Shown here: positions 15,710-35,960 of the stretch, in pieces
Layout: every line of letters starts with the position of its first letter
Position numbering within the stretch: position 1 is the first letter of the stretch
Origin: Candidatus Eiseniibacteriota bacterium
GTDB lineage: Bacteria; Eisenbacteria; RBG-16-71-46; CAVPCR01
Reading direction: 5' to 3'
NCBI GenBank assembly: GCA_963823555.1
Contig: CAWGMA010000004.1
Location: 576,001 to 640,000, forward strand
DNA: 64,000 nucleotides
The notes under the pieces: generated by a model
The model's database searches: none
What the model saw: the letters and a program-made list of their open reading frames with translations, nothing else
Told to the model about the DNA's origin: nothing
Translations under genes and position numbers: made by a program

Positions 15710-18700
15710 CTAGGCGACGCCGAAGTGCCGGGCCAGTGCCGTGCCGGTGTGCGAGCGCCGCCGGGCGCGGGCGAGATCGAGGGGATGCCCGGTGGCGACG
15801 ACGCGCCCGCCTGCGACTCCACCCTCCGGACCGAGGTCGATCACGTGATCCGCCGCCGCGATGAACTCGAGGTTGTGCTCGATGACGATGACGGTGTCGT
15901 CGCGATCGACGAGGCGGTGGAGGCAGGCAATGAGCTTCTCGGTGTCGCCGAGGTGGAGCCCGGTCGTCGGTTCGTCGAGGAGATAGACCGTGCCGCCGCC
16001 CGTGCCCCGGCCGAGCTCGGCCGCGAGCTTGATCCGCTGCGCCTCGCCGCCGGAGAGCGTGTTCGACGGCTGGCCGAGCGTGAGGTAGCCGAGTCCGATC
16101 TCCTCGAGCACCTGGAGCCGGCGGTGGATCGAGGGGATGGCGGCGAACGCATCCTCGGCTTCCGAGATGGTGAGCGCGAGGATGTCGGCGATCGAGCGTC
16201 CATCCCACACGATCTCGAGCGTCTCTGCGTTGAATCGCCGGCCGCCGCAGGAGTCGCAGTCGACGTAGACATTGGGGAGGAAGTTCATCTCCACCTTGAC
16301 CCGCCCCTGCCCGGCGCAGGTCTCGCAGCGGCCGCCGGCCACGTTGAAGCTGAAGCGGTTCGGCGCGTAGCCGCGCGCCCGCGCCGCCGGCGTCTGGGCG
16401 AGGAGGCCGCGGATCTCCGCCAGCACGCCGACGTAGGTGGCGGGTACCGAGCGCGGCGTCTTGCCGATCGGGGACTGATCCACCTCGGCGACGCGCCGCA
16501 CCTCGCCCCGGAGCTCGAGGCCGCGATGACGTGCGGGCGCGCGCCCCTCCTTGAGGCCCAGCTCCTGCCTCAGCGCGTGGTACAGGATGTCGCGGACGAG
16601 CGTGGATTTTCCCGAACCCGAGACCCCGGTGACGCAGGTGAGGGTCCCCAGCGGGAACTCGACGTCGATCTCCTTGAGGTTGTGCTCGGCGGCGCCGAGG
16701 ACGCGGACGAAGCTGCCGCTCGGGATGCGGCGCGGGGCCGGCTCCGGGGCCTTCTGGCGGCGGAGGAAGGCCCCGGTCGGCGAGGAACGAACGCGTGCCA
16801 CCTGGGCCGGCGAGCCCTGGGCCACGACGCGCCCGCCCGCGGCCCCCGCCGCGGGACCGAGATCGATCACCTGATCGGCGGCCCGGATCGTATCCTCGTC
16901 GTGCTCGACCACGATCACCGAGTTGCCGCGATCGCGAAGCCCGGTGAGGGTCGCGAGCAGCTTCCCGTGGTCGCGCGGATGGAGGCCGATCGTGGGCTCG
17001 TCGAGGATGTAGAGAACGCCGCGAAGGTTCGAGCCGAGCTGGGCGGCAAGCCGGATCCGCTGCGCCTCGCCGCCGGAGAGCGTGTCGGCGCTGCGGTCGA
17101 GGCTCAGGTAGGGGAGACCGACCTCGGCGAGGAAGCGGAGCCGGGAGGCGATCTCCGCGGCGAGCGGGCCGGCGATCGGGGTCTCCCTCGCGCCGAGCTT
17201 GAGGGTCGAGAAGAAGCGGAGCGCGTCGGCGACCGTGAGCGCCGAGAGCTCGGCGATCGAGTGCTTGCGGAAGGTGACGGCGAGGGACTCGCGCCGGAGA
17301 CGCGCGCCGCTGCAGTCAGGACACGCCATGTCGCCGTTCCCGGATTCCTCCGTCGATTCCTCGTCCTCCTCTTCCGCTTCGGGATGCCCGAGTACGCCGA
17401 GTCCGTTGCAGCGGGGACAGGCGCCGAGCGGCGAGTTGAAGGAGAAGGCGCGCGGATCGAGCTCGTCGAGCCCGAGCCCGCAATCGGGACAGGCGAGCCG
17501 CTCGGAGAGCGTCACTTCCTCGCCGCGCGCGGGCACGATGCGCACCGCGCCGCGCCCGAGATCGAGGCTCTCCTCGATGGCGGCGAGCAGCGCCTCACCA
17601 TCAGAAACGGCAACCGACTTCACCACCGCCTCGATGCGGTGCTCGCGATAGCGATCGAGCTTGGGGAGGGGGGAGAGCGGCACGACCTGGCCGTCGATCC
17701 GCGCCGCCTCGTAGCCCTGCTTCCGGAGGCGGGCCAGCACGTCCTTGTGGAACCCCTTGCGATCGCGCACCACGGGCGCAAGCAGCGCGACCCGCTGCTT
17801 TGGAAAGCGCCGCTTCACCTCGTCGCGGATCTGCCGCCGCGTCTGGGGCACGATCTCGATCCGGCAGTCGGGGCAGTGCGGCGTTCCTGTGCGCGCGAAT
17901 AGAAGCCGCATGAAAGGATAGATCTCGGTCGCCGTCGCCACCGTCGACTTCCGCCCGCCGCGCGACACGCGCTGCTCGATGGCCACGGTCGGCGGCAGGC
18001 CGCGCGTGGCCTCGACATCGGCGCGTGGCATCTGGGTCACGAACTGGCGGGCGTAGGCCGAGAGGCTCTCCATGTAGCGGCGCTGGCCCTCGGCGAAGAG
18101 GATGTCGTAGGCGAGCGTCGACTTTCCCGAGCCGCTGGGCCCGGTGATCACCACCAGGCGATCGCGCGGGATGTCGACATCGATGTTCTTGAGATTGTTC
18201 TGGCGCGCTCCCCGGACCTCCACGAACTCGGGACCCCGGCGCCGCCGGCCGTTCCGCGGCGGTTCCACGCCGGCTTCCGGAGCGGCGCCCGCCACAGGAG
18301 GCGCAGACGGAACGTGCCGCTTGCCGAGCCGGTACACGCCCGGTTCCTCCTGGATCGCCGCCGCCCGCGCGAGGAGCGGCGCCAGATGCCTCCCGGTGTG
18401 CGAGCGCGTGGTCTCGGCGATCCGCTCGGGCGCGCCGGCGGCGACGATCTCGCCGCCCAGATCACCGCCCTCGGGGCCGAGATCGATCACCCAGTCGGCG
18501 GCCGCGATCACCTCGAGATGATGCTCGATCACGACCACCGAGTGCCCGAGGTCGACGAGCCGCTGCAGCGCGCCGAGGAGGATATCGACATCGGCGAGAT
18601 GAAGGCCGGTGGTCGGCTCATCGAACAGGAAGAGGCTTCCTTGCAGGAGCGCCGACTTCAAGTGCGCGGCGAGCTTCAAGCGCTGGGCCTCGCCTCCCGA

Positions 18701-21193
18701 GAGGGTCGAGAGCGGCTGGCCGAGACGCAGGTAGCCGAGCCCGACCTCGGCCAGCGGCCGGAGCGGACCCGCGATCGCCTCGTCATCGGCGAAGGCGACA
18801 AGGGCCTCATCGACCGTGAGGTCGAGAACGTCGAGGATGGTGCGATCGTCGAGACGGATCTCGAGCACCTCGGGCTGGAAGCGCTTGCCGCCGCAGGCCG
18901 GGCACGGCAGGAAGACATCCGAGAGAAACTGCATCTCGATCTTCTCGAATCCATCCCCGGCGCAGTGCTCGCAGCGTCCGCCCTCGACATTGAAGGAGAA
19001 GGTGGCCGCGTCATGGCCGCGCGCCCTGGCGGTGGGGGTGGCGGCGAAGCGACGGCGGATGCCGTCGTAGGCCTTCACATAGGTGGCGGCGTTGGCGCGC
19101 GGCGAGCGCCCGATCGGGGACTGGTCGACGAGGATGACCTCGGCCACCGCGGCCGCACCCCGGATCCCCCGCATCTCCCCCGGACGCTCGGCGCGATCCC
19201 CGCGCAGCCTGCGCAGCCCGCGATAGAGGCAGTCGACGACGAGCGTCGATTTCCCCGAGCCCGAGACGCCGGTGATGCAGACCAGGCGCTCGAGCGGGAT
19301 CGCCGCCGTCACATCCTTGAGATTGTGGGCGCGGGCGCCCTCGATCCTGAGGGTGCGCTCGGCGCGCAGATCGACCGGGCGCCGGCGGCGGCGCGGCGCG
19401 AGGTGCCGCTTTCCGGTGAGGAACTCGGCGGTCACCGACCCCCGCCGTGCGGCCTTGCCGATCGTGGCCGGGGGCCCCGAGTAAAGGAGGCTGCCGCCCC
19501 GCTCGCCGGCTCCCGGGCCGAGATCCACCAGGCGATCGGCGGCGCGGATGAGATCGGGATCGTGCTCGACGACGACGAGCGTGTTCCCCAGCTCGCGCAA
19601 TCCCTTCAGGATGCCGATGAGGCGCGCCGTGTCGCGGGGATGGAGCCCGATCGAGGGTTCATCGAGGACATAGAGCGTGTTGACGAGATGCGCGCCGAGC
19701 GCGGTCGTCAAGTTGACGCGCTGCACCTCGCCGCCGGAGAGCGTGCGCGACTGGCGGTCGAGCGTGAGATAGCCAAGCCCGACCTCGGCGAGATAGCCGA
19801 GGCGGCTCTCCATCTCGCGGCGGATGGCGAGCGCCGCCTCGTGCTCGAACGGGCCGAGCTCGAGCTCGACGATATGCCGGTGCGCGGCGGCGATCGGCTG
19901 GGCGTAGAAGTCGGCGATCGAGAGCCCGCCGACACGGAACTGGAGCGCCTCCGGCTTGAGCCGCGTGCCGCCGCAGCCCTGGCATGGCACGTAGTCGCGA
20001 TACCGGGACAGCATGACCCGGATGTGCATCTTGTAGGAGCGGCCCTTCAGCCAGTCGAAGAAACCGTCGACGCCGTAGAAGTCGCTCCCCGCGCCGTGGA
20101 GGATGAGCTCGCGCGCGGCTGGAGGGAGCTTGGCCCAGGGGACATCGGTGGGGATCTTCCGCGCCGCGCAGAACTCGAGCAGATCTCGCTGGCACTCGCG
20201 ATAGGAGGGCGAAGTCCAGGGCTTGATGGCGTCGTTCTTGAGGGTGCGGGCCGGATCGGGAACGACGAGGTCGTAGTCGATCTCGATCGTGCGGCCGAAG
20301 CCGTGACAGGTCTCGCAGGCGCCGACCGGCGAGTTGAACGAAAAGAGATTGGGGACTGGATCGCGATAGGCGATATCACATCGCGCGCAGTGGAGCCGCA
20401 CCGAGTAGGCGTGGGTTTCATCACGCACGAGGTCGTGCGCGACCATGACCCCCGCCCCGAAGCGGAGCGCGAGCTCGATCGAATCGACGAGGCGGGCCCG
20501 TCCGGTCTGACCGGCGAGCACGCGGTCGACCACGACCTCGGTGTGGCCGGAGGTGAAGAGCGTTTCCGGCGCCTCGTCGAGGTCCACCGTGTCGCCGGCG
20601 GCGAAGAGGCGGGTGAAGCCGTTCCGGCGGAGGATCTCGCGGAGCTCGGCCGCGCCCACCGTGCCGCGCGCATCGAGCGGGAACGCGATGACGAGACGCG
20701 TGCCGCCCGGAAGCTCGTCCAGATCGGCGGCGATGGCGGCCGGTTGATCGCGATGCACGGGCTCGCCGCACTTGCGGCAATGGAGGGCGCCGATCCGCGC
20801 CCACAGGAGCTTCGCGTAATCGGCGACCTCGGTCATGGTGGCGACGGTCGAGCGTGAGTTCTTGACCGGGTTCGACTGATCGATCGCGACCGCCGGCGGA
20901 ATGCCCTCGATGCGATCCACGGCCGGGCGGTCCATGCGGTCGAGGAACTGGCGGGCGTAGGTGGAGAAGCTCTCGACGTAGCGCCGTTGCCCTTCGGCAT
21001 AGAGCGTGTCGAAGGCGAGCGAGGACTTGCCCGAGCCGGAAACGCCGGTGACGACGACGAGCTCCCCCTCGGGGAGCGTGAGATCGAAGCCGCGGAGGTT
21101 GTGCTGGCGAGCGCCGAAGATGCGGATCGGACTCTGTCCGGTGCGCTTCCGGGAACGCGCTGGACGCGCGCGGGTTCTGGGTTCGCCACGCAT
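15710..21193 (-). CDS. uvrA: Excinuclease ABC subunit A, double-length (two fused UvrA modules)
   Basis: 1827 aa with four Walker A (GxSGSGKS) and four LSGGE signatures, multiple CxxC zinc sites, EGQRRY twice. Confidence 0.92.
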
Positions 21194-21208: not shown

Positions 21209-21652
21209 TTATGGCTGCTTCGGGTCTTCGGTGGTCACTTCGCGGGCGGCCGACGCCAGCTGCGCGATCGTGATGCGGTCGAAGTCCGCGTGGAGGCGAA
21301 CCCGGAGCGCCTTCCAGTTGTCGTGCATCGGGCAGGGGTGGTCATCGTGGCATTCGCGGAGGCCGAGGAAGCAGTCACCGAGGAAGTCGGGGCCGTCGAC
21401 GGCGGCGATGACCTGGGTCAGGCGGATCTTGTGCGGCGCCCGGGCGAGCCGGATCCCGCCCCCAGGCCCCTTGAACGCGTCGACGAGGTTCGCCCGCGCC
21501 AGCTTGCCGACGAGCTTGGCGAGGAAATGCGGCGGAATCCCTTCCGCCTCGGCGATGTCCTTGACCGGAGAGGCCTCGGCGGCGCTCTGTTGCGCCAGAT
21601 GCACGAGCGTGCGCACCGCGTACTGGGCGGCGCGTGAGATGCCGTAGTTCAC
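21209..21652 (-). CDS. Rrf2-family transcriptional regulator (probable Fe-S binding)
   Basis: YAVRTL, IAEAEGIP...GPGGG, CFLGLRECHDDHPCPMH. Confidence 0.9.
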   Translation of the reverse strand: MNYGISRAAQYAVRTLVHLAQQSAAEASPVKDIAEAEGIPPHFLAKLVGKLARANLVDAFKGPGGGIRLARAPHKIRLTQVIAAVDGPDFLGDCFLGLRECHDDHPCPMHDNWKALRVRLHADFDRITIAQLASAAREVTTEDPKQP

Positions 21653-21812: not shown

Positions 21813-23296
21813 ATGCGGGGGCGGGCGGTTGTGATCGTGACGGGGGCGATCGTGACGATGCTGATCGCGACGTCGCTTCTCGGTGGCTGTGGTCGGGGCG
21901 GCGAGGAAGCCACGCCCATCGAGTCCTCGACCGCGCTCTCCTCTCGATCGGACGCCTTCCTCGATACGCTCTCCGAGCGCACCTTCCGCTTCTTCTGGGA
22001 GCTCAGCGATCCACGCACCGGGCTGGCTCCCGATCGCGCGCCCACGGAGTCCTTCGCCAGCGTGGCGGCGACCGGCTTCGCGCTCACCGCCTATCCGATC
22101 GGCGTCGAGCGCGGCTACATCTCGCGCGCCGCGGCGGCCGACGCGCTCTCACGACGCTGCGCTTCTTCTGGGAGGCGCCCCAGGGAGACTCGCCTGCGGG
22201 CACGATCGGCTACCACGGCTTCTTCTACCACTTCCTCGATCCCGAGACCGGGCATCGCTTCGGCGACGGTCGAGCTCTCCACCATGGACACGGCCCTGCT
22301 CCTGGCCGGCGCGCTCTTCTGCCAGTCCTACTTCGACGGCGCCGACGCGCGACGGAGGACAGCGATCCGCGCGCTGGCCGACTCGCTCTACGCGCGCGTC
22401 GACTGGCAGTGGGCGTCGGTCCGGCCGCCCACCATCGGCCACGGCTGGACACCCGGAGAGCGGCCACCTGCCCTACGACTGGCGCGGCTACAACGAGGCG
22501 ATGATCCTCTACCTCCTGGCGCTCGGCTCGCCCACCCACCCGGTCGCCGCCGGAGGCCTGGTCGGCCTGGACCGCGGGCTACCGCTGGGGCGAGTTCCAC
22601 GGCCAGGAGCACCTCGGCTTCGCGCCGCTCTTCGGCCACCAGTACACGCACGTCTGGATCGACTTCCGCGGCATCCGCGACGACGTACATGCGCGAGCGC
22701 GGGCATCGACTACTTCGAGAACTCGCGCCGCGCCGTGCTCGCCCAGCACGCCTACGCCATCGCGAATCCCGGCGGCTGGCGCGGGCTACGGACCGCGACC
22801 TGTGGGGACTGACCGCCTGCGACGGCCCGGTGCACCGGCACGTTCGAGATCGACGGCCGCGAGCGCGCAGTTCCACACCTACTGGGCGCGCGGCGCGTCG
22901 TTCACCGGCGTCAACGACGACGGCACGATCTGCCCCGTCGGCGGCCGGCGGCGTCGATCGCCTTCGCGCCGGAGATCGTCATCCCGACCCTGCATCGCCA
23001 TGCGCGAGACCTACGGCGAGCACCTCTTCTCCACCTACGGCTTCCTCGATGCGCTGAACCCGACCTTCACGCTCGACGTGCCGCGTCCAGCACGGCCGCG
23101 TCGATCCCGGGCGTCGGCTGGTTCGACACCGACTACCTCGGCATCGACCAGGGTCCGATCCTGGCCATGATCGAGAACCACCGCAGCGGAGCTGGTCTGG
23201 CGGACCATGCGCGCGCAACCCGCACGTGGTGCGCGGGCTGCGCGCGGCCGGGTTCACCGGCGGCTGGCTCGACGCGCGCCGGGAGCCGAGCCGTGA
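21813..23296 (+). CDS. GH144-like (glucoamylase-like) endo-beta-1,2-glucanase, lipoprotein; multiple frameshifts
   Basis: LLGGC lipobox; motifs SVAATGFALTAYPIGVERG, GYNEAMILY, PLFGHQY, WGLTACDGP, GIDQGP spread over frames. Confidence 0.75.
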
Positions 23297-24644
23297 GCGC
23301 GCTGCGGCCAGTCGCCGCGATCGCTGCGCGCTCGTGGCGCGCTCGTGCTCCTGCCTCGCCGGCTGCGGCCGCGGGTGCGACGCGGCGATCGGGTCACCGT
23401 CTGCGCTTCTGGGCCATGGGCCGCGAGGGCGAGGTCGTCCAGGAGCTGGTGCGCGACTTCGAGCGCGAGAACCCCGGACATCCGCGTCGAGGTGCAGCAG
23501 ATCCCCTGGTCCGCCGCCCACGAGAAGCTGCTGACCGCCTATCGTCGGGCGGCTCCACGCCGGACCTCGCCCAGCTCGGGCAACACCTGGATCGCCGAGT
23601 TCGCCGCCCTCGGGCGCTCGCGCCGCTCGAGCCGCTGGGTCGCCGCCTCGGCCGCGGTCGATTCCGACGGCGCTACTTCCCCGGCATCTGGGACACCAAC
23701 GTCATCGACGGCGTGCTCTACGGCGTGCCCTGGTACGTCGACACGCGCGTGCTCTTCTACCGCAGCGACCTCCTGGCGCGCGGCCGGCTACGACTCGATG
23801 CCCGCGCACCTGGGACGGCTGGCGCGCGGCCATGGCGGCGGTCGAAGCGCGGCGGTCGGGGCCGGACCGCTACGCCATCTTCCTGCCCATCAACGAGTGG
23901 ACCCAGCCGGTGATCCTCGGCCTGCAGGCGGGCTCGCCGCTGCTGGCCGACGACGACACCCGCGGCGCCTTCTCGCGCGCCCGAGTTCCGCCGCGCCTTC
24001 GCCTTCTACCTGGATCTGTTCCGCGACGGCCTGGCGCCCGCCGGTGAGCAACAACGAGATCGCGAACCTCTACCAGGAGTTCGCGCGCGGCTACCTTCGC
24101 CATGTACATCACCGGCCCCTGGAACCTGGGCGAGTTCCGGCGCCGCCTGCCGCCCGAGCTGCAGGACGCCTGGGCCACCGCGCCGCTGCCCGGGCCCGAC
24201 GGCGCGACGTCCGGGCGTGTCGCTGGCCGGCGGCTCGAGCCTGGTCGTCTTCCGCGGCTCGCGCAGCACAAGGAGGCGGCCTGGCGGCTCGATCGAGTTC
24301 CTGTCGCGGCCCGAGCAGCAGGTCCGCTTCTTCCAGCTGACCGGCGATCTGCCGGCGCGCATCGCGAGGCCTGGGAGGACCCGGCGCTGGCCGCGCGATC
24401 CCCACGCTGCGCGCCTTCGGCGAGCAGCTCGCAGCGCGTGGTCGCCGACGCCCAAGATCCCCGAGTGGGAGCAGATCGCCACCCGCGTGCAGGAGCGCGC
24501 CGAGCAGGCGATCCGCGGCGCGCGTCCGCCCGACGCGGCGCTGGCGCAGCTCGACCGCGACGTGGACCGCATCCTCGAGAAGCGGCGCTGGCTGCTCGAG
24601 CGCGGCGGCCCGAGCCGCCGCGAGCCGGGAGGAGGACGCCATGA
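23293..24644 (+). CDS. Sugar ABC transporter substrate-binding protein; frameshifted
   Basis: LRFWAMGREGEVV, QQIPWSAAHEKLLTA, GVPWYVDTRVLFYR, PKIPEWEQIA across frames. Confidence 0.8.
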
Positions 24645-25552
24645 GCGCGCTGCTCGAGCGCCAGCAGGCACGCGCCGGCCTGGCTCTTCCTCGCCCCGGC
24701 GCTCGGCTCTGATCGCGCGTCTTCTTCTTCGCTGCCGGTGCTCGCCGGCCTGCTGCTCAGCCTGACCGACTTCGACATCTACGCCATCGGCGCACCCGGG
24801 CACCGCGCGCTTCGTCGGGCTGCGACAACTACGCCGCAGCTGCTGCACGAGCCCGACTGTTCTGGCAGGCGCTGCGGCAACACGCTCTACTTCGTGCTCG
24901 TCGGCGGCCCGCTGTCGGTGCTCGTCTCGCTGGGCGCGGCGCTGCTGCTCAACGCGCGCTGCGTGCGGCTGCGCGAGCCTCTTCCGCACCATCTACTTCG
25001 CCCCGGTGGTGACCACGCTGGTCGCGGTGGCCATCGTCTGGCGCTACCTCTACCACCCGCGCTACGGCCTGCTGAACTACGCTGCTCGGGCTGGTCGGGC
25101 ATCGGCCCGATCGACTGGCTGGGCGATCCCGCACTGGGCCATGCCGGCGATCATCCTGCTCGCGGTGTGGAAGAACTTCGGCTACAACATGCTCATCTTC
25201 GTCGCCGGCCTGCAGAGCATCCCCGAGGAGCTGTACGAGGCCGCCGCCATCGACGGCGCCGGCGCCTGGCGCCGCTTCCGCCACATCACCCTGCCGGGCC
25301 TCGCGCCCGACCTTCCTGTTCGTCGGCGTCACCACCATGATCGGCTACTTCCAGCTCTTCGCCGAGCCCTACGTGATGACCCAGGGCGGGCCGCTGCGGC
25401 GCGCACGCGCAGCGTCGTGCTGCTCATGTACGAGGAGGGCTTCCGCTGGTGGCGGATGGGCATGGCCTCGACCATCGCGTTCGTGCTGCTGCGTGATCAC
25501 GCTCGTCGGCACGCTGCGTCCAGCTGCGCCTGCAGCCGGGAGCGGCGCATGA
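24641..25552 (+). CDS. Sugar ABC transporter permease 1; frameshifted
   Basis: LSLTDFDIYA, VWKNFGYNMLIFVAGLQSIPEELYEAAAIDGA (EAA loop), MTQGGP; ATGA overlaps on both sides. Confidence 0.85.
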
Positions 25553-26390
25553 GGCGACGCGCTCGGGCACGGTCGCTGCTGCACGCTGGCGCTCGTCGCT
25601 CGGCGCGCGTGCGTCACGCTGACGCCGCTGGTCTGGATGGTGTCGGCCTCGTTCATGCCGCCGGGCGAGGCCAACTACGCTCCCGCCGCCGCTTCCTGCC
25701 CGGCACGTCCGACCCTCGAGCACTACGTCGCGCTCTTCACCCGGCTCGACCTGGCGCGCCACTTCCTCAACAGCGCGCTGATCACGGTGCTGGCGACGGT
25801 GCTCTCGGTGCTGGTCAACTCGCTGGCCGGCTACGCCTTCGCCAAGCTGCCGCTTCCGCGGTCGCGACCGGCTCTTCAGCGGACTCGCGCTGGCGCTCTG
25901 GTCGTCCCGGCGCAGGTGGGCATGCTGCCGCTCTTCCTGCTGCTGCGCGAGCTGGGCCTGGTCAACACCTACGTCGGGGTGCATGATCCCGTACCTGGCC
26001 AGCATCTTCGGCATCTTCCTGATCCGCCAGTACGCGCTCGAGCGTGCCCGACGAGCTGCTCGACGCCGCGCGCATCGACGGCGCCGGCGAGTTCCGCATC
26101 TTCCGGCATCGTGGTCCTGCCGGTCATCCGCCCGATCCTGGTCACGCTGGCGACCTTCACCTTCCTGAGCGCCTGGAACGACTTCATGTGGCCGCTGATC
26201 ATCCTCAGCGACAGCGCGCATGTACACGCTGCCGGTGGCCCTGGCCAACCTGGTCGGGCGAGCACGTGCAGGACACCGAGCTGATGATGGCCGGCTCGGT
26301 GCTGACCGATCCTGCCGGCCCTCGTCGGTGTTCCTCGTCTTCCAGCGGACCTACGTCCGCGGCATCATGGCCGGGAGCGTGAAGGGATGA
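25549..26390 (+). CDS. Sugar ABC transporter permease 2; frameshifted
   Basis: FLNS, AGYAFAKL, PDELLDAARIDGA, WNDFMWPL, MAGSVKG stop. Confidence 0.85.
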
Positions 26391-29300
26391 GGCGTCTCGC
26401 GTGGACCTGCTGGCGCTCGCGCTGGCGCCGTGCTGCGCTGGCGCGCGGCGCTCCGGCGCGCGGCGGCGACGAGCGCGCTCGTCGATCGACGACTTCGAGG
26501 ACGTCGCGGCGCTGGACGGCCCATCCCGGCCGACGGCGTCGAGCTCGCGATCTGCGTCCGACGACGGGCGTCACGGCCGCGCCCTGCGCCTCGACTTCGG
26601 CTTCACCGGCGGCGGCTACGCCATCGCCCGCACGCGAGGTCGACCTCGACTCTGCCGGACGAACTACGCCTTCTCGCTTCCGCATCCGGGGCGAGGCGCC
26701 GCCCAACCACCTCGAGTTCAAGCTGATCGACGCGAGCGGCGAGAACGTCTGGTGGTCGGTCCGCCGCGACGTCGAGTTCCCGCGCGAGTGGCGAGCCGTT
26801 CACGATCAAGAAGCGACAGATCGCGTTCGCCTGGGGGCCGCGCGGGCGGCGGCGAGATCCGCGCACGTCGCCGCGATCGAGTTCGCGATCACCGCGGGCA
26901 GCGGGGGCGCGGGCACGGTGTGGATCGACGACCTTGACGCTCGACGCCGCTGCCGCCGCCGGACGCGCCGCCGCCGGCGCCCGTGGCGCGCGCGTCCTCG
27001 GCGCGGCGCGGGCACGGGCGCGGCGCTGGCCCTCGACGGCGATCCGACGACCGCGTGGCGCCCGGCGGCCGGCGATCGCGCGCCCTGGCTCGCGCTCGAC
27101 CTCGGCGGGGCGCGCGAGTACGGCGGGCTCGTCCTCGACTGGGCGCCGGTGGCGGCGCCGCGGACTACGTGGTCGAGGTGTCGGACGACGGGCGCGACGT
27201 GGCGCGTCGCGCGCACGGTCACGGGCGGCAACGGCGGGCGCGACTACCTCTACCTCCCGGAGACCGAGTCGCGCCACCTGCGGGTGCGGCTGACGGGCGG
27301 GCCGGAGGCGACGCGCGGCGCGGCGCTCGCCGAGATCACGATCGAGCCGCTGGCCTGGTCGGCCACGCGCGAGGACTTCTTCCAGGCCATCGCCGCCGAC
27401 GCGCCGCGCGGGCTGCTACCCGCGCGGGATCTCGGGCGAGCAGGTCGTACTGGACGGTGGTCGGCGCCGACCACGACCCGCGAGGAGGTCCTCCTCAGCG
27501 AGGACGGGGCGATCGAGACGCGGGAGCGAGCGGCTTCTCGATCGAGCCGTTCCTCGTGGTGGGCGGAACGCTCCTGACCTGGGCCGACGTGGAGCCGAGC
27601 AGTCCCTGGTGCGACGGCGGCCTGCCGATCCCCACCGTGACGCTGGACGTCGCGCGGCGCTCGCGCCTCGACGATCACCGCGTTCGCGACGGGCGATCCG
27701 GGCGCGTCGTCGATCGTCGTCCCGCTACCGCGTCCTCAACCACGGCGCCGGCGCGGCGCCAGGCGACCCTGTACCTCGCCCTGCGCCCGTTCCAGGTGAA
27801 TCCGCCCGCGCAGTTCCTGAACATGCCCGGCGGCACAGCGCCGATCCGTGATCATCGCGCGCTCGACGGAGCGACCGTGTTCGTCGAACGGCCGGCCGGC
27901 GTTCTCCTGCCGCACCCCGCCCGTCGGACTTCGGGGCCGCGACGTTCGACCAGGGCGACGTCGGTGGCCGACTACCTGGCGCCAGGAGCGGCTGCCGGCG
28001 GACGACCGCGGTCGAGGATCCCTTCGGCGCCGCGTCCGGCGTCCTGGCCTTCCCCTGGCGATCGGTCCGTCGGTGCGACCGGCAGCGGGCAAGGCCGAGG
28101 TGGACATCGTCATTCCGCTCTACGCGGCTCGCCCGCCGCCGCCCGGCCGGCCGCGGATGCCGGCCGCCCCGGGCGAGCTCGGCGCCGACCGGGCGGACTC
28201 GGTGTCGCTCGCCGCGGGGCGCCTGGCGATCGACGCTGGAGCGGCCGCGATCGAGCTTCGCCGCGCCGCGAACCGGCCGAGTGGATCGATCGAACCCTCC
28301 GTGCGCCAGCTCGCGCTACATCCTCGTCAACCGCGCCGGCCCCGCGATCCAGCCCGGCGCGCGCTCCTACGCGCGCTCGTGGATCCGCGACGGCGCGCTC
28401 ACCTCGTCGGCGCTGCTGCGCCTCGGCCACGCGGATGCGGTGCGCGAGTTCATCGAGTGGTTCGCGCCGCACCAGTACGCGAACGGCAAGATCCCCTGCG
28501 TGGTCGACGGGCGCGGCGCCGATCCGGTGCCCGAGCACGACTCCAGCGGCGAGTTCATCTTCCTGGTCGCCGAGTACTACCGCTACACGCGGCGATCGCG
28601 GCGCTGGTCGAGCGAGATGTGGCCGCGGGTCGCGCGCGGCGGCGGCCTACCTCGACTCGCTGCCGCCACGAGCGCCGGACGCCGCGAGTACGCAGCGCCC
28701 GAGAAGCGCGCACTTCTACGGGCTCCTGCCGCCGTCGATCAGCCACGAGGGCTACTCGGCCAAGCCGATGCACTCCTACTGGGACGATTTCTTCGCCCTG
28801 CGCGGCTTCAAGGACGCGGCCTTCCTGGCCGGCGAGCTGGGCCGACGCGGACGACGCGGCGCGCGCTGGCCGCGATCGCGCGACGAGTTCGCCGCCGACC
28901 TCGCCGCCTCGGTCGCGGCGGCGCATGCCGCGTGCACGGCATCGACTACGTGCCCGGCTGCGCCGATCTCGGCGACTTCGACGCCACCTCGACCACCATC
29001 GCCCTCGCGCCGACCGGCGCCGGCCGCGATCCTGCCGCGCGGCGCGCTCGAGCGCACCTTCGAGCGCTACTGGGAGTTCTTCACGGCGCGCCGCGACGGC
29101 GCGCCGTGGGAGGCGTTCACGCCCTACGAGATGCGCAACATCGGCGCCTTCGTGCGCCTCGGCTGGCGCGAGCGCGCCCAGGAGCTGCTCGACTTCTTCC
29201 TGGCCCACCAGCAGCCGGCCGGCTGGCGCCAGTGGGCCGAGGTCGGTCTGGCGCGACGACCGCGCGCCCGCGCTTCCTCGGCGACATGCCCGCACACCTG

Positions 29301-29664
29301 GGTGGGCTCGGACTACGTCCGCTCGGTGCTCGACATGTTCGCCTACGAGCGGGAGGCCGACTCGACCCTGGTCGTCGGCGCCGGCGTGCCGATCGAGTGG
29401 CTCGTCTCGGACCCCCGGATCTCCGTGCTGAACCTGAGCACGCACTACGGGCCGCTCTCCTTCACCATGCGGCGCGCTGGCGACGGCGTCGAGGTCGCGA
29501 TCGAGGCCGGGACTCGCATCCCGCCGGGCGGAATCGCCGTCTCGACCCCGCTTGCGGCCATCCGGTCCGCCACCGTCAACGGCGCCCGCGTCGAGCCGGG
29601 CCCCACAGGCGAGATCCTGGTCCGCAAGCTCCCGGCGACCGTCCTCGCCACCCCCGAGCCATGA
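26387..29664 (+). CDS. Secreted multidomain protein: discoidin (F5/8 type C) domain plus six-hairpin glycosidase-like domain; frameshifted
   Basis: ALDGDPTTAW discoidin motif; IQPGARSYARSWIRDG, PEHDS, SISHEGY, HSYWDDF, HTWVGSDY. Confidence 0.75.
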
Positions 29665-29700: not shown

Positions 29701-29730
29701 TTGATAAGCAGATGAGAATATGTGTAGAAT
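29701..29730 (+). promoter_or_regulatory. Sigma70-like promoter for the Omp28-like gene
   Basis: TTGATA-N18-TAGAAT in an AT-rich patch 56 nt upstream of ATG 29787. Confidence 0.55.
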
Positions 29731-29786
29731 GGACCCGGTCAGGCAAGTCCCTGGCCGCTGTCCATATCCAGCCAGGAGGTCAGCCA

Positions 29787-31866
29787 ATGAGGACGCTTGC
29801 TCTCGCCGGTACGCTGCTCGCTCTGATCGGGCTTGCGAGCCTGGTCACCGCCGAACCCAGGATGGTGCTCATCGAAGAATTCACGAACACATCTTGACCG
29901 TCCTGCCCTGCAGCCAGCCGTGTGCTGGACCAGATCATGTCGCGTCATCCCGAGATGCTCGCCACCATCGCCATTCACGGCTGGTGGCCCGGGTCGGGCG
30001 ATCCCTTCTACGTCGCCAACATCGATGAGAACCGCGCCCGGATCACCTACTACGGCGTCAACTACACGCCGCACACTTACTTCGACGGCATCATCGACGG
30101 CACCTACGCCGGCCCCTGGGAGCAGATGATCCTCGACCGGGCGGCCATTCCGAGCCCGCTCCGCATCGAGCTCTCCGGCGATCCGGTCGCCCACACCATC
30201 ACCGCCGAGGTCACGAACACGAGCGGCGCCGCGGTGACGGGGACGCTCCACTTCGTCATCACCGAGAGCGATGTCAACCCGCCGGCCGGTTCGACCTATC
30301 GCTTGCCGCAGAAGCTCAATCATGGCATGCGTGACTTCTTCCCCGATGTCACGGGTGAAGTCATCACGTTCTCGCCTGGCGTGCCGGTCTCGCGCACGCA
30401 GACCTTCACCCTCGGCCCCTGGCTCGAACCGAATCTCGAGTGCGTGGTCTTCGTGCAGAACGACACCTCGAAGGAGGTCTACCAGGCGGCGAAGATCGCC
30501 TTCCTGCTCAATCAGCCCGAGCTGGTCGTGACCGGCATCCAGGTCGATGACACGGTGGGGGGCAACGGGGACGGTCGGCTCGACCCCGGCGAGAACGCGG
30601 ATGTCTCGCTCACGCTCATGAACCTGAACCCGATCGATGCGACGACGGTCCTCGGGGCGCTCTCGACGAGCGACAACTACGTCACGGTCACCGACGACAC
30701 GGGCAGCTGGCCCGATATCCCGGGCCTGGGTTCCGGCAACAACAGCGGGGATCCCTTCGCGGTGAGCATTGCCGCGGGAGCACCCTGGGGTTACGAGCTC
30801 CCGTTCAATCTCGATCTCCTGGCGAACGGGGGCTACGTGAAGCAGCTGACCCTGACCCTCGGCATCGGCTCGCCCGATGACCCGATCGGGGCAGACAGCT
30901 ACGGTTACTTCGCCTACGAGGATGCCGATGATCCAGGAGTCGTCCCGCGCCCGGTCTACAACTGGGTGGAGATCGATCCCAATCTCGGTGCGGCCGGGGA
31001 CCCTGGTCACGCTGGCCGACGATCAGACCGTGCAGCGGACGATGTCGTTCAACTTCAAGCTGTACGGCAACGTCGACAACCGGATCTCGATCTCCTCGAA
31101 CGGCTTCCTGGCGCTGGGCGTGACCTCGGAGAACGCGGTCTCGAACGGCGCGATCCCCGGACCCGAGGGACCGCCGAAGATGATCGCCGGCTTCTGGACC
31201 GACCTGAACCCGGTGGCTGCCGGTGGCGGCAAGGTCTATGCGTGGGACGATGCCGCGGGTGGTCGCTACATCGTCGAGTTCAGCGGTGTCGAGCACTACC
31301 ACGACACCGGGCAAGGATTGCCGGAGACCTTCCAGTTCATTCTCTACAATCCGGACATGCATCCGACCCAGTCGGGCGATGGGCAGATCGACATCCAGTA
31401 CATGCTGGTGAGCGATGCCTCGGGGTGCACGGTCGGGATCGAGAACGAGACCGAGACGGTCGGCATCCAGTACCTGGCCAACGGCGACGTGAACGCGGCG
31501 GCCTTCGGCCTCGAAGCCGGGCGCGCGATCAGGTTCACCACCACGGGCCCGAATGGCACGGCGAGTGTCGAGGATCCGCTGGCGGCTCCGGGCCTGACGC
31601 GGGTCTCCGTGCGGCCGAACCCGTTCCGCGGCGCCACGGCGATCAACTACACCATTCCCCACGAGAGCGCGGTGACGCTCCGGCTCTACGGTGCGGATGG
31701 GCGGCTCCTGCGGACGTTGATCGATGGCCCTCTGGCCGCCGGTCCGGGAACCGTGAGCTGGGATGGACGGGATGGACGGGGGAACGATGTTCCCGCTGGC
31801 ATCTACTTCTATCGCCTCTCCGGTGAGGAGTTCGAGGTCGCGGGCAAGCTGACGCGGCTGCGGTAA
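29787..31866 (+). CDS. Secreted Omp28/thioredoxin-fold protein with UxxC motif (candidate selenoprotein), Ig-like middle domains and FlgD/T9SS-like C-terminal domain; one frameshift near 30990
   Basis: AGGAGGT RBS, signal peptide, MVLIEEFTNTS-UGA-PSC continuing in frame into IHGWWPGSGDPFY...YYGVNYTPHTYFDG; C-terminus RPNPF...WDGRD...AGIYFYRL. Confidence 0.8.
29895..29933 (+). promoter_or_regulatory. In-frame UGA plus candidate bacterial SECIS stem-loop
   Basis: CTG-cag-CCAGC-cgtgt-GCTGG-ac-CAG; the loop starts 21 nt after UGA and has G at its second position followed by U. Confidence 0.6.
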
Positions 31867-31869
31867 CAC

Positions 31870-31941
31870 CGCTCAGGGCGGCACCTGAGCGACCTGCCAA
31901 GAGCGAGGCCCTCTCCGTTGCGGACCGGGGAGGGCCTCGCT
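31870..31941 (+). terminator. Two hairpins downstream of the Omp28-like gene (terminator-like, no U-tract)
   Basis: CGCTCAGG-N6-CCTGAGCG (31870-31891) and AGCGAGGCCCTCTCCG-N8-CGGGGAGGGCCTCGCT (31902-31941). Confidence 0.55.
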
Positions 31942-32062: not shown

Positions 32063-32548
32063 ATGCGCCTCCGTCTTCTCCCCCTTACCCTCGCCCTGGG
32101 TCTGGTTCTCGTCGCCTGCAGCGACTCCGGGGACCCGACCGCGCCCTTCGCGCCGCCTGACACGCCGCCAGCGGTCAACCCGGCGGTCGCCGAGTTCGTG
32201 ACGCTCGTGAACGCGCACCGCACGGCGCTCGGCCTCGCCCTGCTCGAGTGGGATGCCGAGGTCGCCGGCGTCGCCCAGGCGCACAGCGAGGACATGGTTG
32301 CCCGCGGGTTCTTCAGCCACGTGAACCCCGACGGCGACTCCCCGTTCGATCGCCTGCGTGCCGCCGGCATCGCCTATGCGGCGGCGGGGGAGAACATCGC
32401 CTACGGCTACCCGACGCCGGCGACCGTGCTCGAGGCCTGGCTCGGGAGCGACGGGCACCGGGCCAACATCGAGAACGCGAACTACACGCACCACGGTGTC
32501 GGTCTCGCGGGGACGCACTGGACGCACGTGTTCGTGCGGAAACCGTAG
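32063..32548 (+). CDS. CAP (SCP/YkwD-like) domain lipoprotein
   Basis: LVAC lipobox; VNAHR, AQAHSEDM, FFSH, GENIA, WLGSDGHRANI. Confidence 0.92.
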   Translation: MRLRLLPLTLALGLVLVACSDSGDPTAPFAPPDTPPAVNPAVAEFVTLVNAHRTALGLALLEWDAEVAGVAQAHSEDMVARGFFSHVNPDGDSPFDRLRAAGIAYAAAGENIAYGYPTPATVLEAWLGSDGHRANIENANYTHHGVGLAGTHWTHVFVRKP

Positions 32549-32593
32549 GTTTCGTCATCAGCGGGAGGCCGTTTCCAGCATCTTGACCGCCCC

Positions 32594-32623
32594 TTGACGC
32601 GGCAGAACCCGTTGCCGTACCAT
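32594..32623 (+). promoter_or_regulatory. Sigma70-like promoter for the small-peptide/NoeA-like cassette
   Basis: TTGACG-N18-TACCAT upstream of ATG 32680. Confidence 0.45.
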
Positions 32624-32679
32624 CATTTTGTGCCCTTCATGTGTATCGCAATGTGCAGTCGACGGGGGTAAATGACCCA

Positions 32680-32919
32680 ATGAAGTCTCTAGCACGCCAT
32701 CGTGCGGTGCTGTTAGCTGTTCCGGTCCTGGTACTGCTCGTCGCGCGGAACGCGTACGCGTACATCGACCCCAACACGGGCAGCATGCTGCTACAGATCA
32801 TCATCGGTTCGGTGCTGGGCGCTGCGGCCGCTATCGGGGTGTTCAGAGCCCAGGCTGCCCGCTTCTTCAGGCGGCTCTTCGGGTTGGAAAAGAACAACAA
32901 CAGCACCGATGAAAGCTGA
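32680..32919 (+). CDS. Small membrane protein with 'AYIDPxTGS' motif
   Basis: Signal-like N-terminus ending AYA, then YIDPNTGSMLLQ, a TM helix and a basic tail; overlaps the next gene's start. Confidence 0.7.
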   Translation: MKSLARHRAVLLAVPVLVLLVARNAYAYIDPNTGSMLLQIIIGSVLGAAAAIGVFRAQAARFFRRLFGLEKNNNSTDES

Positions 32920-34285
32920 TGAGAAGAACGCGGGGTCGTTTCGCGATCCCAGCGGATTTCTCTTCACGCGCGACGGGGTCCTCCATCGCCAGGTCAATCA
33001 CAGGTATGCGCAGGAATATGACCGCCTGATGTCGGGCGGTCTCTATGCCGCTCTTGTCAGCGACAAGCTTCTCGTCGAGCATGAGGAGGCGGATCCCGGG
33101 TTCGCCCAGTCCGCCGAGGCCTACAAGATCATCCGTCCCGAGCGCATCGGGTTCATCTCGTATCCCTACGAGTGGTGCTTCAGCCAGCTCAAGGACGCCG
33201 CGCTCCTGACGCTTCGTATCCAGCGTCTGGCCCTCGAGCACGGGATGAGCCTCAAGGACGCGAGCGCCTACAACATCCAGTTCGCAGCCGGGCGGCCCAT
33301 CCTCATCGACACTCTCTCCTTCGAGACCTACGAGGAGGGGGCGCCCTGGGTGGCCTACCGCCAGTTCTGCCAGCATTTCCTGGCCCCGCTGGCGCTCACG
33401 AGCTTGACCGATGTCCGCCTGGGCCAGCTCATGCGCATCTACATCGATGGCATCAGCATGGATCTCGCCTCGGCGCTCTTGCCCATGCGCACGCGGTGGC
33501 GCGCCGGCCTCATGATGCACATCCATCTGCATGCGCGCAGTCAAGCTCGACACGCCGGCGACACGGCCGGTGTCAAGGGCCGCCGCCTGAGCCGCATGGC
33601 CCTGACCGGACTCCTGAATAGCCTCGAATCGACCGTCCGGAAGCTCGACTGGAAGCCCGTGGGTACCGAGTGGGGGGATTACTACTCCGCCACGAACTAC
33701 ACCGACGAAGCGCTCGAGCACAAGAAGGAGCTGGTGCGGTCGTTCATCGGCGAGGCTCGACCCGGCACGGTGTGGGACCTGGGGGCCAACCTGGGCCTCT
33801 TCAGCCGGCTCGCATCCGAGCAAGGCATCCCGACCGTGGCCTTCGACATCGATCCGGCCGCGGTCGAGAAGAGCTACCGCCGGGTGGTCGCCGATCGGGA
33901 GACCCACCTCCTGCCTCTCGTCCAGGATCTCACCAACCCGAGCGCCGGCATCGGCTGGGCCGGGGACGAGCGCGTCTCCCTGACCGCCCGCGGCCCGGCC
34001 GATCTCGTGATGGGCCTGGCCCTGATCCATCACCTGGCGATCTCCAACAATGTCCCCCTCGACATGGTGGCCGAGTACATGGCCCGGCTCGGGCGGAAGC
34101 TCGTGATCGAGTTCGTGCCCAAGGAGGACTCACAGGTGCGCCGGTTGCTGGCCACCCGCGAGGACGTGTTCCCGAATTACTCGCAAGCGGGGTTCGAGGA
34201 GGCCTTTGCCCGGTGGTGGACCCTCGATCGCAAGGAAGCGATTCCGCTCACCGAGCGCACCCTCTACCTGATGACGCGCAAGTAG
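32909..34285 (+). CDS. NoeA-like protein: N-terminal kinase-like region plus C-terminal class I SAM methyltransferase
   Basis: SFRDPSG, SYPYEW, LKDASAYNIQF, LIDTLSF; WDLGANLGLFS SAM motif; LALIHHLAI. Confidence 0.8.
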   Translation: MKADEKNAGSFRDPSGFLFTRDGVLHRQVNHRYAQEYDRLMSGGLYAALVSDKLLVEHEEADPGFAQSAEAYKIIRPERIGFISYPYEWCFSQLKDAALLTLRIQRLALEHGMSLKDASAYNIQFAAGRPILIDTLSFETYEEGAPWVAYRQFCQHFLAPLALTSLTDVRLGQLMRIYIDGISMDLASALLPMRTRWRAGLMMHIHLHARSQARHAGDTAGVKGRRLSRMALTGLLNSLESTVRKLDWKPVGTEWGDYYSATNYTDEALEHKKELVRSFIGEARPGTVWDLGANLGLFSRLASEQGIPTVAFDIDPAAVEKSYRRVVADRETHLLPLVQDLTNPSAGIGWAGDERVSLTARGPADLVMGLALIHHLAISNNVPLDMVAEYMARLGRKLVIEFVPKEDSQVRRLLATREDVFPNYSQAGFEEAFARWWTLDRKEAIPLTERTLYLMTRK

Positions 34286-34328
34286 CCGTGCCCCTGGAAT
34301 TGGCTCCGACTCCTTGAGGGGGACCCGC

Positions 34329-35960
34329 ATGGCATCCGAGTCGCGTTCGCGCCGCCGGAGCTGGGTGATCCACCCGCTCTCGTTCGCCCTGTTCCCCGTG
34401 CTCTCGCTCTACTCGAGCAACATCCACGAGACCCCGGCGGATCAGGTCGTCTTGCCGCTGGTGGTCGCGGCCGGGGTCACGCTCCTCGTCCAGGTCGCGG
34501 CCCGGCTTCTCCGAGGGAACAGCGACCGCACGGGGATCGTGCTCTCGGCCGCAGTCCTCATCTTCCTTCTCTACGGGCACATGCTACGTGTGGTCGAGGC
34601 CGTGCGACTTCCGGGGCCCGCGGTCGCGCTGGCGGTCACGACGACCTTGTTCTTCGTGGCGGTGGTGTGGCTGACGGCTCGTACCAGGAGAGACCTCGGC
34701 GCCGTGACCAAGCTCCTGAACGTGCTGAGCTTGAGTCTCCTGGTGGTGGCCCTGGTCCCGATCCTGCTCCATGCCGTGCAGACGATCGGCAAGCGCGACT
34801 ACTCGCGCTTGCCGGATCTCGATCCCGGGGTCCCCCTCGCGTCGATCGGGGCCGGGCCCAATCCGCCGGACGTCTACTATCTCGTCTTCGATCGCTTCGG
34901 GAGCGAGGGGAGCATCAAGGAGTTCTGCGGGCTCGATACGGCGCCCTTCTTCGCGGCGCTCCGCGAGCGCGGGTTCCATGTCATCGAGCATGCCCGCCCC
35001 AACTACCCGAAGACCTCCCACTCGTTGGCATCATCCATGAACATGGAGTACCTGACCTTCCTCGAAGAGGCCGGCATCACGCCGGCCACCGATTACGGCC
35101 CGCTCCACCAGATGATGCGGGGCGATTATCGCGTGGCGCGCTTCCTGCGCGGGCAGGGCTACCATTACTACCACGTCGGCTCGTGGTACTCGCCGACGGC
35201 GGGCAATCGATACGCCGAGAAGAACTTCCGCTTTCAGAAGCTCTCCGAGTTCGCCTCCATCCTCTACGAGAGCACGGTTCTGTACTCGCTCGTCGACCTC
35301 GTCACCCGCGTCGACGACCGCATGACGCAGTACCAGAGCATCGGCTATGTGTTCGAGCACCTCGCCGCCATGCCGGCGGAGCGCGGTCCCCGGTTCGTCT
35401 TCGCCCATGTCCTCCTGCCCCACACGCCCTACGTGATCGATGCCGACGGGTCCTTCCTGCCGCGCGCGGTCCGGGACGAGCGGTCCGACGAGGCCAACTA
35501 TGCGAACCAGGTCCGCTTCGCCAGCTCGGCCATTCTCGATCTGGTGGACACGCTCATCCGGGAGTCGGCGACGCCGCCGATCATCATCCTGCAGGCGGAC
35601 GAGGGGCCACACCCCATCCGCTACGTCGAGACCGAGGCGGGGAAACACGTCGAGCACCCGTTTTCCTGGCGCAACATCACCGATGCCGAGGTGAGGATCA
35701 AGTTCGGGATCCTCGGTGCGATCCACCTGCCGGGCGCCGATACCGGTGCCGACCTGCCCCCGGACCGGACCTCGGTCAACACCTTCCGGATCGTCTTCAA
35801 CCACGTCTTCGGAACTCGCTTTCCGATCCTGCCCGATGCCTGCTACACGCCGCTCGATTCCCGCCATCTCTACGAGTTCATCGACGTCACCGCGCGGACG
35901 GTGATGGACGGGCCCGGGATGGCGGGCGCACCCGACGCGACGGCGGCCGCCGCCGAGTGA
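34329..35960 (+). CDS. Membrane-anchored sulfatase/phosphotransferase-like protein (NoeB/LTA-synthase-like)
   Basis: About five N-terminal TM helices; [41 protein letters not shown] alkaline-phosphatase-superfamily motifs. Confidence 0.75.

Follow-up and report, generated by a model that had tools for sequence, protein, structure and literature searches.

We propose, with a probability of roughly 0.62, that the gene starting at position 29787 of the window (the whole 64,000-nucleotide stretch analysed here; all features of the gene given below lie on the + strand) encodes an exported thiol-disulfide oxidoreductase of about 690 residues with a UxxC active site, which would be routed to the cell surface by its C-terminal tail through a type IX-like system. 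The basis of the proposal is an in-frame TGA at 29895-29897, which is almost certainly decoded as selenocysteine.

Gene structure and context

The gene is preceded by a sigma70-like promoter, TTGATA-18-TAGAAT (29701-29730; 10 of 12 matches, one occurrence found against 0.2 expected in shuffled sequences), and by the ribosome-binding site AGGAGG (29774-29779), located 7 nt upstream of the ATG at 29787. The start codon opens a 22-residue hydrophobic leader ending in VTA|EPR, which, assessed by eye, is a predicted Sec/SPI signal peptide (M1-A22, 29787-29852) without a lipobox cysteine; the leaders of the orthologs are similar. The leader is followed by EPRMVLIEEFTNTS, then by the TGA, which corresponds to the predicted selenocysteine 37 at the nucleophilic site, and then by PSC. 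Hence, each element of the front end listed in the initial annotation (promoter, ribosome-binding site, signal peptide, VLIEEFTNTS, TGA and PSC) was found in the sequence. That annotation had also stated that the frame remains open for more than 350 codons. In fact, the frame is open for 642 codons beyond the TGA, only about 363 of which represent real protein, owing to a +1 frameshift, considered below, that the annotation had missed.

The gene appears to be monocistronic. A GC-rich hairpin of 14 bp without a U-tract is situated past the stop codon (31903-31940) and could be a terminator, but the terminator scan did not call it. In three genomes compared, no neighbours were conserved beyond the genus, and synteny was observed within the genus only. 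Downstream, at 32063-35960, a CAP-domain lipoprotein-like gene facing the selenoprotein gene is followed by a methyltransferase gene and a membrane sulfatase-like gene; these genes are not conserved beside the selenoprotein gene in the relatives compared. Elsewhere in the window we noted, by eye, a double-length (1827 aa) UvrA-like excinuclease gene at 15710-21193, adjoined by an Rrf2-like regulator at 21209-21652.

Predicted selenocysteine and cysteine forms of the domain

The genome, which is 92.5% complete, encodes selA, selB, selD and a tRNA-Sec with the anticodon UCA, so that the complete selA/selB/selC/selD set expected of a selenoprotein producer is present; selD of this genome itself contains an in-frame TGA. 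The comparison of the Sec form with the presence of selA across genomes is uninformative, since selA was found in 59 of 61 genomes and does not discriminate.

The domain was matched in 21 of the 61 genomes searched. We compiled 79 rows, comprising 30 loci, 40 further regions, locus L041 and the six copies from the own genome. TGA was observed in 38 rows and cysteine in 39, and two had no motif. One cysteine row, a spurious pick in a leader, was left out, yielding 38 TGA and 38 cysteine domains (n = 76), while the two rows lacking a motif both stem from the stretch downstream of a frameshift in one gene of G008, which has a TGA at its start. The initial annotation had placed the UGA at the nucleophilic cysteine of the Omp28-type CxxC and had suggested looking for TGA/Cys alternation and for the selenocysteine machinery; the homologs, with either TGA or cysteine at exactly this codon, and the sel genes listed above bear out this interpretation. 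The resolving cysteine is retained in all 76 domains, which is partly due to the construction of the motif search. Metagenomic loci (9 of 80) contributed 14 TGA and one cysteine form. Thus, as in known bacterial selenoproteins, we observe an in-frame UGA at a conserved catalytic cysteine together with Sec/Cys pairs of homologs.

In the tree of 89 rows, from which the two frameshifted rows were left out, the Sec/Cys label changes eight times, and at least six of these changes are forced by well-supported branches. The gene from the window belongs to a clade of 21 rows, all with TGA (support 100/99), whereas P0009, a database ortholog of the same architecture, carries CPYC. Six paralogous Omp28-like domains are present in the own genome, two with TGA and four with CxxC. 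The sequences suggest an expansion of the family, with several paralogs per genome, and at least six to eight switches between Sec and Cys.

Several loci show further variants. Omp28-like genes, mostly with TGA, stand in tandem in groups of two to four at L065 (genome G058), L091, L094, L095 and L041; one copy at L065 has the Cys form and has lost the hairpin pairing, hence constituting a natural Sec-to-Cys pair within one locus. In one genome (G004, locus L034) a TGA-form homolog with a hairpin occurs with no selA match; this genome is 81% complete and consists of 560 contigs, and the missing selA is probably due to its incompleteness.

The own genome also has five other redox-type genes with UxxC-type sites, recognised by eye. 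The candidate selenoproteins with such sites and hairpins, likewise assigned by eye, are TlpA-like (C1:1632372), AhpF-N/Grx-like (C2:649882), AhpC/TSA-like (C2:668598), a lipoprotein redoxin (C3:333396), GrdB-like (C4:717067) and the second Omp28-like paralog (C2:139022). One more site, a UxxCH look-alike of a heme motif at C3:231866, was rejected as not being a plausible gene.

Conserved hairpin downstream of the TGA

A hairpin with a 5-bp stem and GU in its loop is located at 29914-29928, 17-31 nt past the TGA, and is likely a SECIS element, as the conservation of its stem suggests. We compared it in the 21-row clade and the G008 gene, that is, in 22 sequences, 19 of them distinct. None of the 19 distinct sequences has lost any of the five stem pairs, while the loop is variable and its variation alters the encoded residue (Arg, Ser or Leu). 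The codons of the hairpin are frozen (AGC in 19/19, CTG in 19/19, CGT in 14/14, GCC in 18/18), the estimated usage of the same codons in the genome being 0.29, 0.32, 0.09 and 0.51, respectively, and the Pro and Thr codons flanking the hairpin vary freely. As the stem is invariant, the clade offers no covariation.

In the other TGA subfamilies the hairpins are different but lie in a similar place. Hairpins of -4 kcal/mol or better were found behind 35 of the 38 TGA codons and 16 of the 38 Cys codons, although the p-value of this contrast is overstated, since the rows are related. The minimum free energy of the whole region did not differ between the TGA and Cys forms (p 0.22), and the 81-nt fold of the window gene was no more stable than shuffled sequences (z 0.48); hence single-sequence folding, not being significant, was dropped as evidence for a SECIS element. 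Thus, the presence of a hairpin directly 3' of the UGA is supported by the frozen stem and not by single-sequence stability.

Domain architecture and fold

The mature part of the protein begins with a thioredoxin-fold domain (29853-30149) that contains U37-P-S-C40 and is supported by PDB thioredoxin matches. The only invariant columns across 68 aligned domains are the two cysteine positions and one proline (P73, 30069-30071, present in 68 of 68), which we take to occupy the position expected for the cis-Pro loop of thioredoxins. It is followed by an Ig-like domain of the Omp28/HBP35 type (30150-30509; PF11551, 42 bits at a cutoff of 34.9; match to 2r2c with Z 9.3). A model of the N-terminal 219 residues, covering the thioredoxin and Ig domains, has a mean pLDDT of 94. 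Its best structural match among 48,161 chains is HBP35 (PDB 5y1a; Z 25.7, rmsd 2.2 A over 213 residues, 13% identity), followed by Atu2684 (Z 20.1), and a profile search of the PDB agrees with the HBP35-type fold (E 4e-9). Polyubiquitin matches from a single-sequence search of the PDB were spurious.

Further downstream we observe a second all-beta, Ig-like stalk domain (30513-30980) with a DDxxGGNGDGRLDPGE loop, a domain also present in C25 protease genes of the same genome, and a NIDO-like beta domain (30997-31560). The latter is a lead, with a feature score of 0.97 to the NIDO cluster and a NIDO recognition value below the threshold. The folds assigned to the stalk are based on this cluster score, on weak NIDO matches in relatives and on a full-length model of an ortholog (pLDDT 84.5), in which the second all-beta domain is accompanied by a larger domain of beta structure and by a sandwich at the C-terminus. 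The C-terminus is formed by a predicted FlgD-Ig/T9SS-type sorting domain (PNPF...GIYFYRL...KLTRLR, 31609-31866 including the TAA), which matches PF13860 with 42 bits at a cutoff of 27 and TIGR04183 with 22.7 bits at a cutoff of 23; as assembled, this tail is out of frame. Hence, the fusion of a thioredoxin fold to Ig-like and FlgD/T9SS-like domains, anticipated in the initial annotation, is supported by the fold model and by both Pfam profiles.

The Ig and NIDO-like stalk is not restricted to this family, as in database proteins it also stands behind C25, M28 and M14 peptidase heads. In the own genome, three of four paralogous NIDO-like segments adjoin C25 domains; the genome has 20 C25 matches, four of them partial, and six large genes for gingipain-like C25 proteases with FlgD-Ig tails stand in tandem at C1:490795-516771.

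Predicted export

The protein is very probably exported, as predicted from its leader. SprA, PorU and PorV were all found above their cutoffs, hence both a type IX-like translocon and a sortase are present: porU is directly followed by porV (C1:701907-706321), and sprA is located elsewhere (C1:1891699-1895856). For GldN, the search gave no match in the genome, and no control genome matched either. At least 150 FlgD-Ig domains are encoded in the genome (150 scored of 257 candidates). As SprA, PorU and PorV are encoded together with this number of FlgD-Ig domains, T9SS-type surface display is likely, and we predict it for this protein with reasonable, if lesser, confidence than export. An exported protein with a sorting tail, as originally suggested, thus has its counterparts in the leader, the FlgD-Ig tail and the SprA/PorU/PorV apparatus.

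SprA was matched in 61 of 61 related genomes (59 above the cutoff; the count includes the unpublished genome G053), and a type IX-like export system therefore appears to be phylum-wide. By the same token, co-occurrence of SprA with the family is uninformative. We found no paper describing type IX secretion in this lineage.

Proposed mechanism and alternative functions

Four steps can be envisaged. SelB and Sec-tRNA would read the UGA under the guidance of the hairpin that lies 17-31 nt further on; the parts required for this are present in the genome, and the decoding itself is predicted from them. The leader would then carry the chain over the inner membrane via Sec, whereupon SprA and PorV would recognise the FlgD-Ig tail and a PorU-like sortase would probably cleave and anchor the protein. 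At the surface, the selenolate may attack disulfides or oxidised thiols of surface proteins, as suggested by HBP35 and by selenol chemistry, Cys40 would resolve the mixed selenenyl-sulfide, and the Ig and NIDO-like domains would serve as a stalk. By analogy, thiol-disulfide chemistry of the predicted protein is quite probable.

The weakest step is the choice of clients. The most likely ones would be co-exported thiol proteins, including the gingipain-like C25 cysteine proteases, which are proposed because the stalk is common to both; their role as clients is tentative and rather doubtful. C25-type cysteine proteases need a reduced thiol, and a surface selenoenzyme of this uncultured lineage, on the C25-type Ig and NIDO-like stalk, might conceivably be a redox activator of these proteases, which we regard as a speculative idea. 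If it were true, selenium supply would control extracellular proteolysis.

Two other functions should be considered. The selenoprotein could be an oxidase or isomerase that catalyses the folding of cargo proteins with such tails (about 150 or more), either in the periplasm or during transit, rather than a reductase of mature surface proteins. The T-P loop and the UPSC motif are compatible with either a reductase or an isomerase and hence do not tell the two apart; the cargo is abundant, given at least 150 FlgD-Ig domains, and six paralogs with different heads and stalks would suit a family of client-specific folding factors. However, the protein has the sorting tail and the stalk of the cargo itself, and HBP35, the nearest relative of known structure, is anchored at the surface, so that we consider a folding role unlikely.

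Alternatively, a surface selenoenzyme could reduce small molecules (peroxides, polysulfides, metal-thiol or heme ligands) or bind heme like HBP35, protein disulfides not being its main substrate. Selenols are strong peroxide nucleophiles. HBP35, according to the consulted part of PMC2907840, binds hemin and is required when hemin is limiting. On the other hand, identity to HBP35 is only 13%, the resolving cysteine occurs in 76 of 76 domains (a count to which the motif search contributed), and the limited synteny described above includes no conserved transport or peroxidase neighbourhood; this function, too, is unlikely, if anything a little more so. A thiol-disulfide oxidoreductase of surface proteins thus remains our preferred reading.

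Reading frame and sequence quality

At 30982-30994 the window carries one base more than five orthologs, which are single genes of about 690 aa. Due to this +1 frameshift, the C-terminal half of the protein, with the NIDO-like domain and the FlgD-Ig tail, lies in another frame (ORF 30877-31866, TAA at 31864-31866). If the UGA is decoded as Sec and the frameshift is real in this strain, the NIDO domain and the sorting tail are lost, which would make the gene a recent pseudogene or its product a truncated periplasmic form. The extra base is indeed present in the assembly, no near-identical contig bridging the site was found in 8 of 20 listed public runs, and elsewhere in the gene there is no net frameshift. 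Yet, downstream of the frameshift the sequence still aligns with the same-genus ortholog at 79% identity over 289 residues, uninterrupted by gaps or stops; a contig of a relative (run X2, record 13) shows the net one-base difference at the frameshift; and the adjacent 7.7 kb contains 218 non-triplet indels relative to the same-genus genome, hence one or both assemblies are unpolished here. Such an unpolished stretch makes an assembly error the likeliest cause; thus, the extra base is probably an artefact, and a frameshift that is real in this strain has only a small probability.

The adjacent region (21953-29655) comprises an operon with sugar ABC-transport and glycoside-hydrolase-like genes that is full of frame changes; these probably result from an unpolished long-read assembly, and findings in this operon need care.

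The initial annotation had called for confirmation of the TGA in reads, and a 151-base contig of the public RNA run X6 (record 23, 29860-30010) reads TGA with no differences from the window, so that the codon has been read independently of the assembly; the contig has a depth of 2 and is not proof of transcription. In spite of the assembly errors nearby, a true stop codon or a sequencing error at this site is scarcely credible, as the X6 contig reads TGA and TGA is kept in 52 homologous domains with the downstream frame intact in most of them, which rules out the sequencing error.

Mis-annotation and implications

The expectation that gene callers would lose the front end of the gene turned out to be correct far beyond the window: 32 of 33 database orthologs start past the site, without the leader and the active site (TGA was demonstrated in DNA for six of the 32, two are partial fragments, and for the rest it is inferred). 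Hence, the selenoproteomes of these sediment bacteria are undercounted. GOS_C, a little-studied selenoprotein group discussed below, gains a large, divergent and mis-annotated branch. If the tail works as predicted, a type IX-like system would here deliver a selenoprotein to the cell surface, a case that we did not find described in our searches. Natural Sec/Cys pairs in one genome allow a direct test of the reasons for selenium use outside the cytoplasm.

Comparison with known families

With T9SS cargo carrying a gingipain-type CTD the protein shares the signal peptide, a C-terminal beta-sandwich tail ending in K-x-x-x-L-R and a genome encoding SprA, PorU and PorV. It differs in that the tail is of the FlgD-Ig type and scores slightly below the TIGR04183 cutoff, GldN was not found in the genome, and the host, going by its lineage label, is outside Bacteroidota. 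The Omp28 family of outer membrane lipoproteins (NF033782; Pfam PF11551) has the same domain as the window protein, and PF11551 is matched above its cutoff; however, the window protein has no lipobox cysteine, and its score of 50-52 bits against a cutoff of 150 places it outside NF033782.

HBP35, the 35-kDa hemin-binding protein of Porphyromonas gingivalis (5y1a), has the same build, a thioredoxin and Ig module with a signal peptide and a C-terminal sorting domain, all of which were found here. Unlike the window protein, it has CxxC, 344 residues and no stalk, and it comes from a host of a different phylum; identity is as low as 13%. The consulted part of the HBP35 study reports cysteine-dependent thioredoxin activity and CTD-dependent surface anchoring; in the same part, hemin binding is located outside the thioredoxin site and a role in oxidative stress is unproven (PMC2907840).

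The initial annotation regarded a surface-targeted selenoprotein as unusual, and this novelty was overrated. Other non-cytoplasmic selenoproteins, namely an outer-membrane barrel, a TonB-dependent receptor and ABC substrate-binding proteins, appear in the consulted table of PMC13188914, hence export alone is not unprecedented. Our literature search found no paper joining Omp28 with a selenoprotein and none joining a bacterial selenoprotein with type IX secretion; the family is not named in the portions consulted of PMC12013277 and of the BSepDB supplement (PMC13326102).

The best NCBIfam match is NF045500, "Omp28-related selenoprotein" (E 1.5e-16), at 57-61 bits against a cutoff of 200 and over profile positions 39-267 of 377, that is, below the membership cutoff, which was passed in 0 of 41 genomes of the phylum. 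Its defining trait, an Omp28 Ig domain behind a UxxC-bearing thioredoxin fold, is found in the window protein. NF045500 corresponds to the hypothetical protein GOS_C with UxxC (PMC13188914, Table 1, as consulted), for which Zhang and Gladyshev, in the consulted part of their 2008 paper, listed 74 Sec and 312 Cys sequences with a thioredoxin-like fold and SECIS-like elements (PMC2398784). Two GOS_C sequences in the supplement have leader-like N-termini followed by ...EDFTGLNUPYCP..., while the term "signal peptide" occurs 0 times and export is unmentioned in the main text as consulted (PMC2398784). The window protein and GOS_C share the thioredoxin fold, UxxC with a single Sec at the first position, the Omp28-type Ig domain and a downstream SECIS-like hairpin, whereas the window protein adds the Ig and NIDO-like stalk and the FlgD-Ig sorting tail. 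Thus, UxxC Omp28-like selenoproteins have been in print since 2008, and the window protein is a divergent cousin of the selenoprotein family predicted then, with an HBP35-like build.
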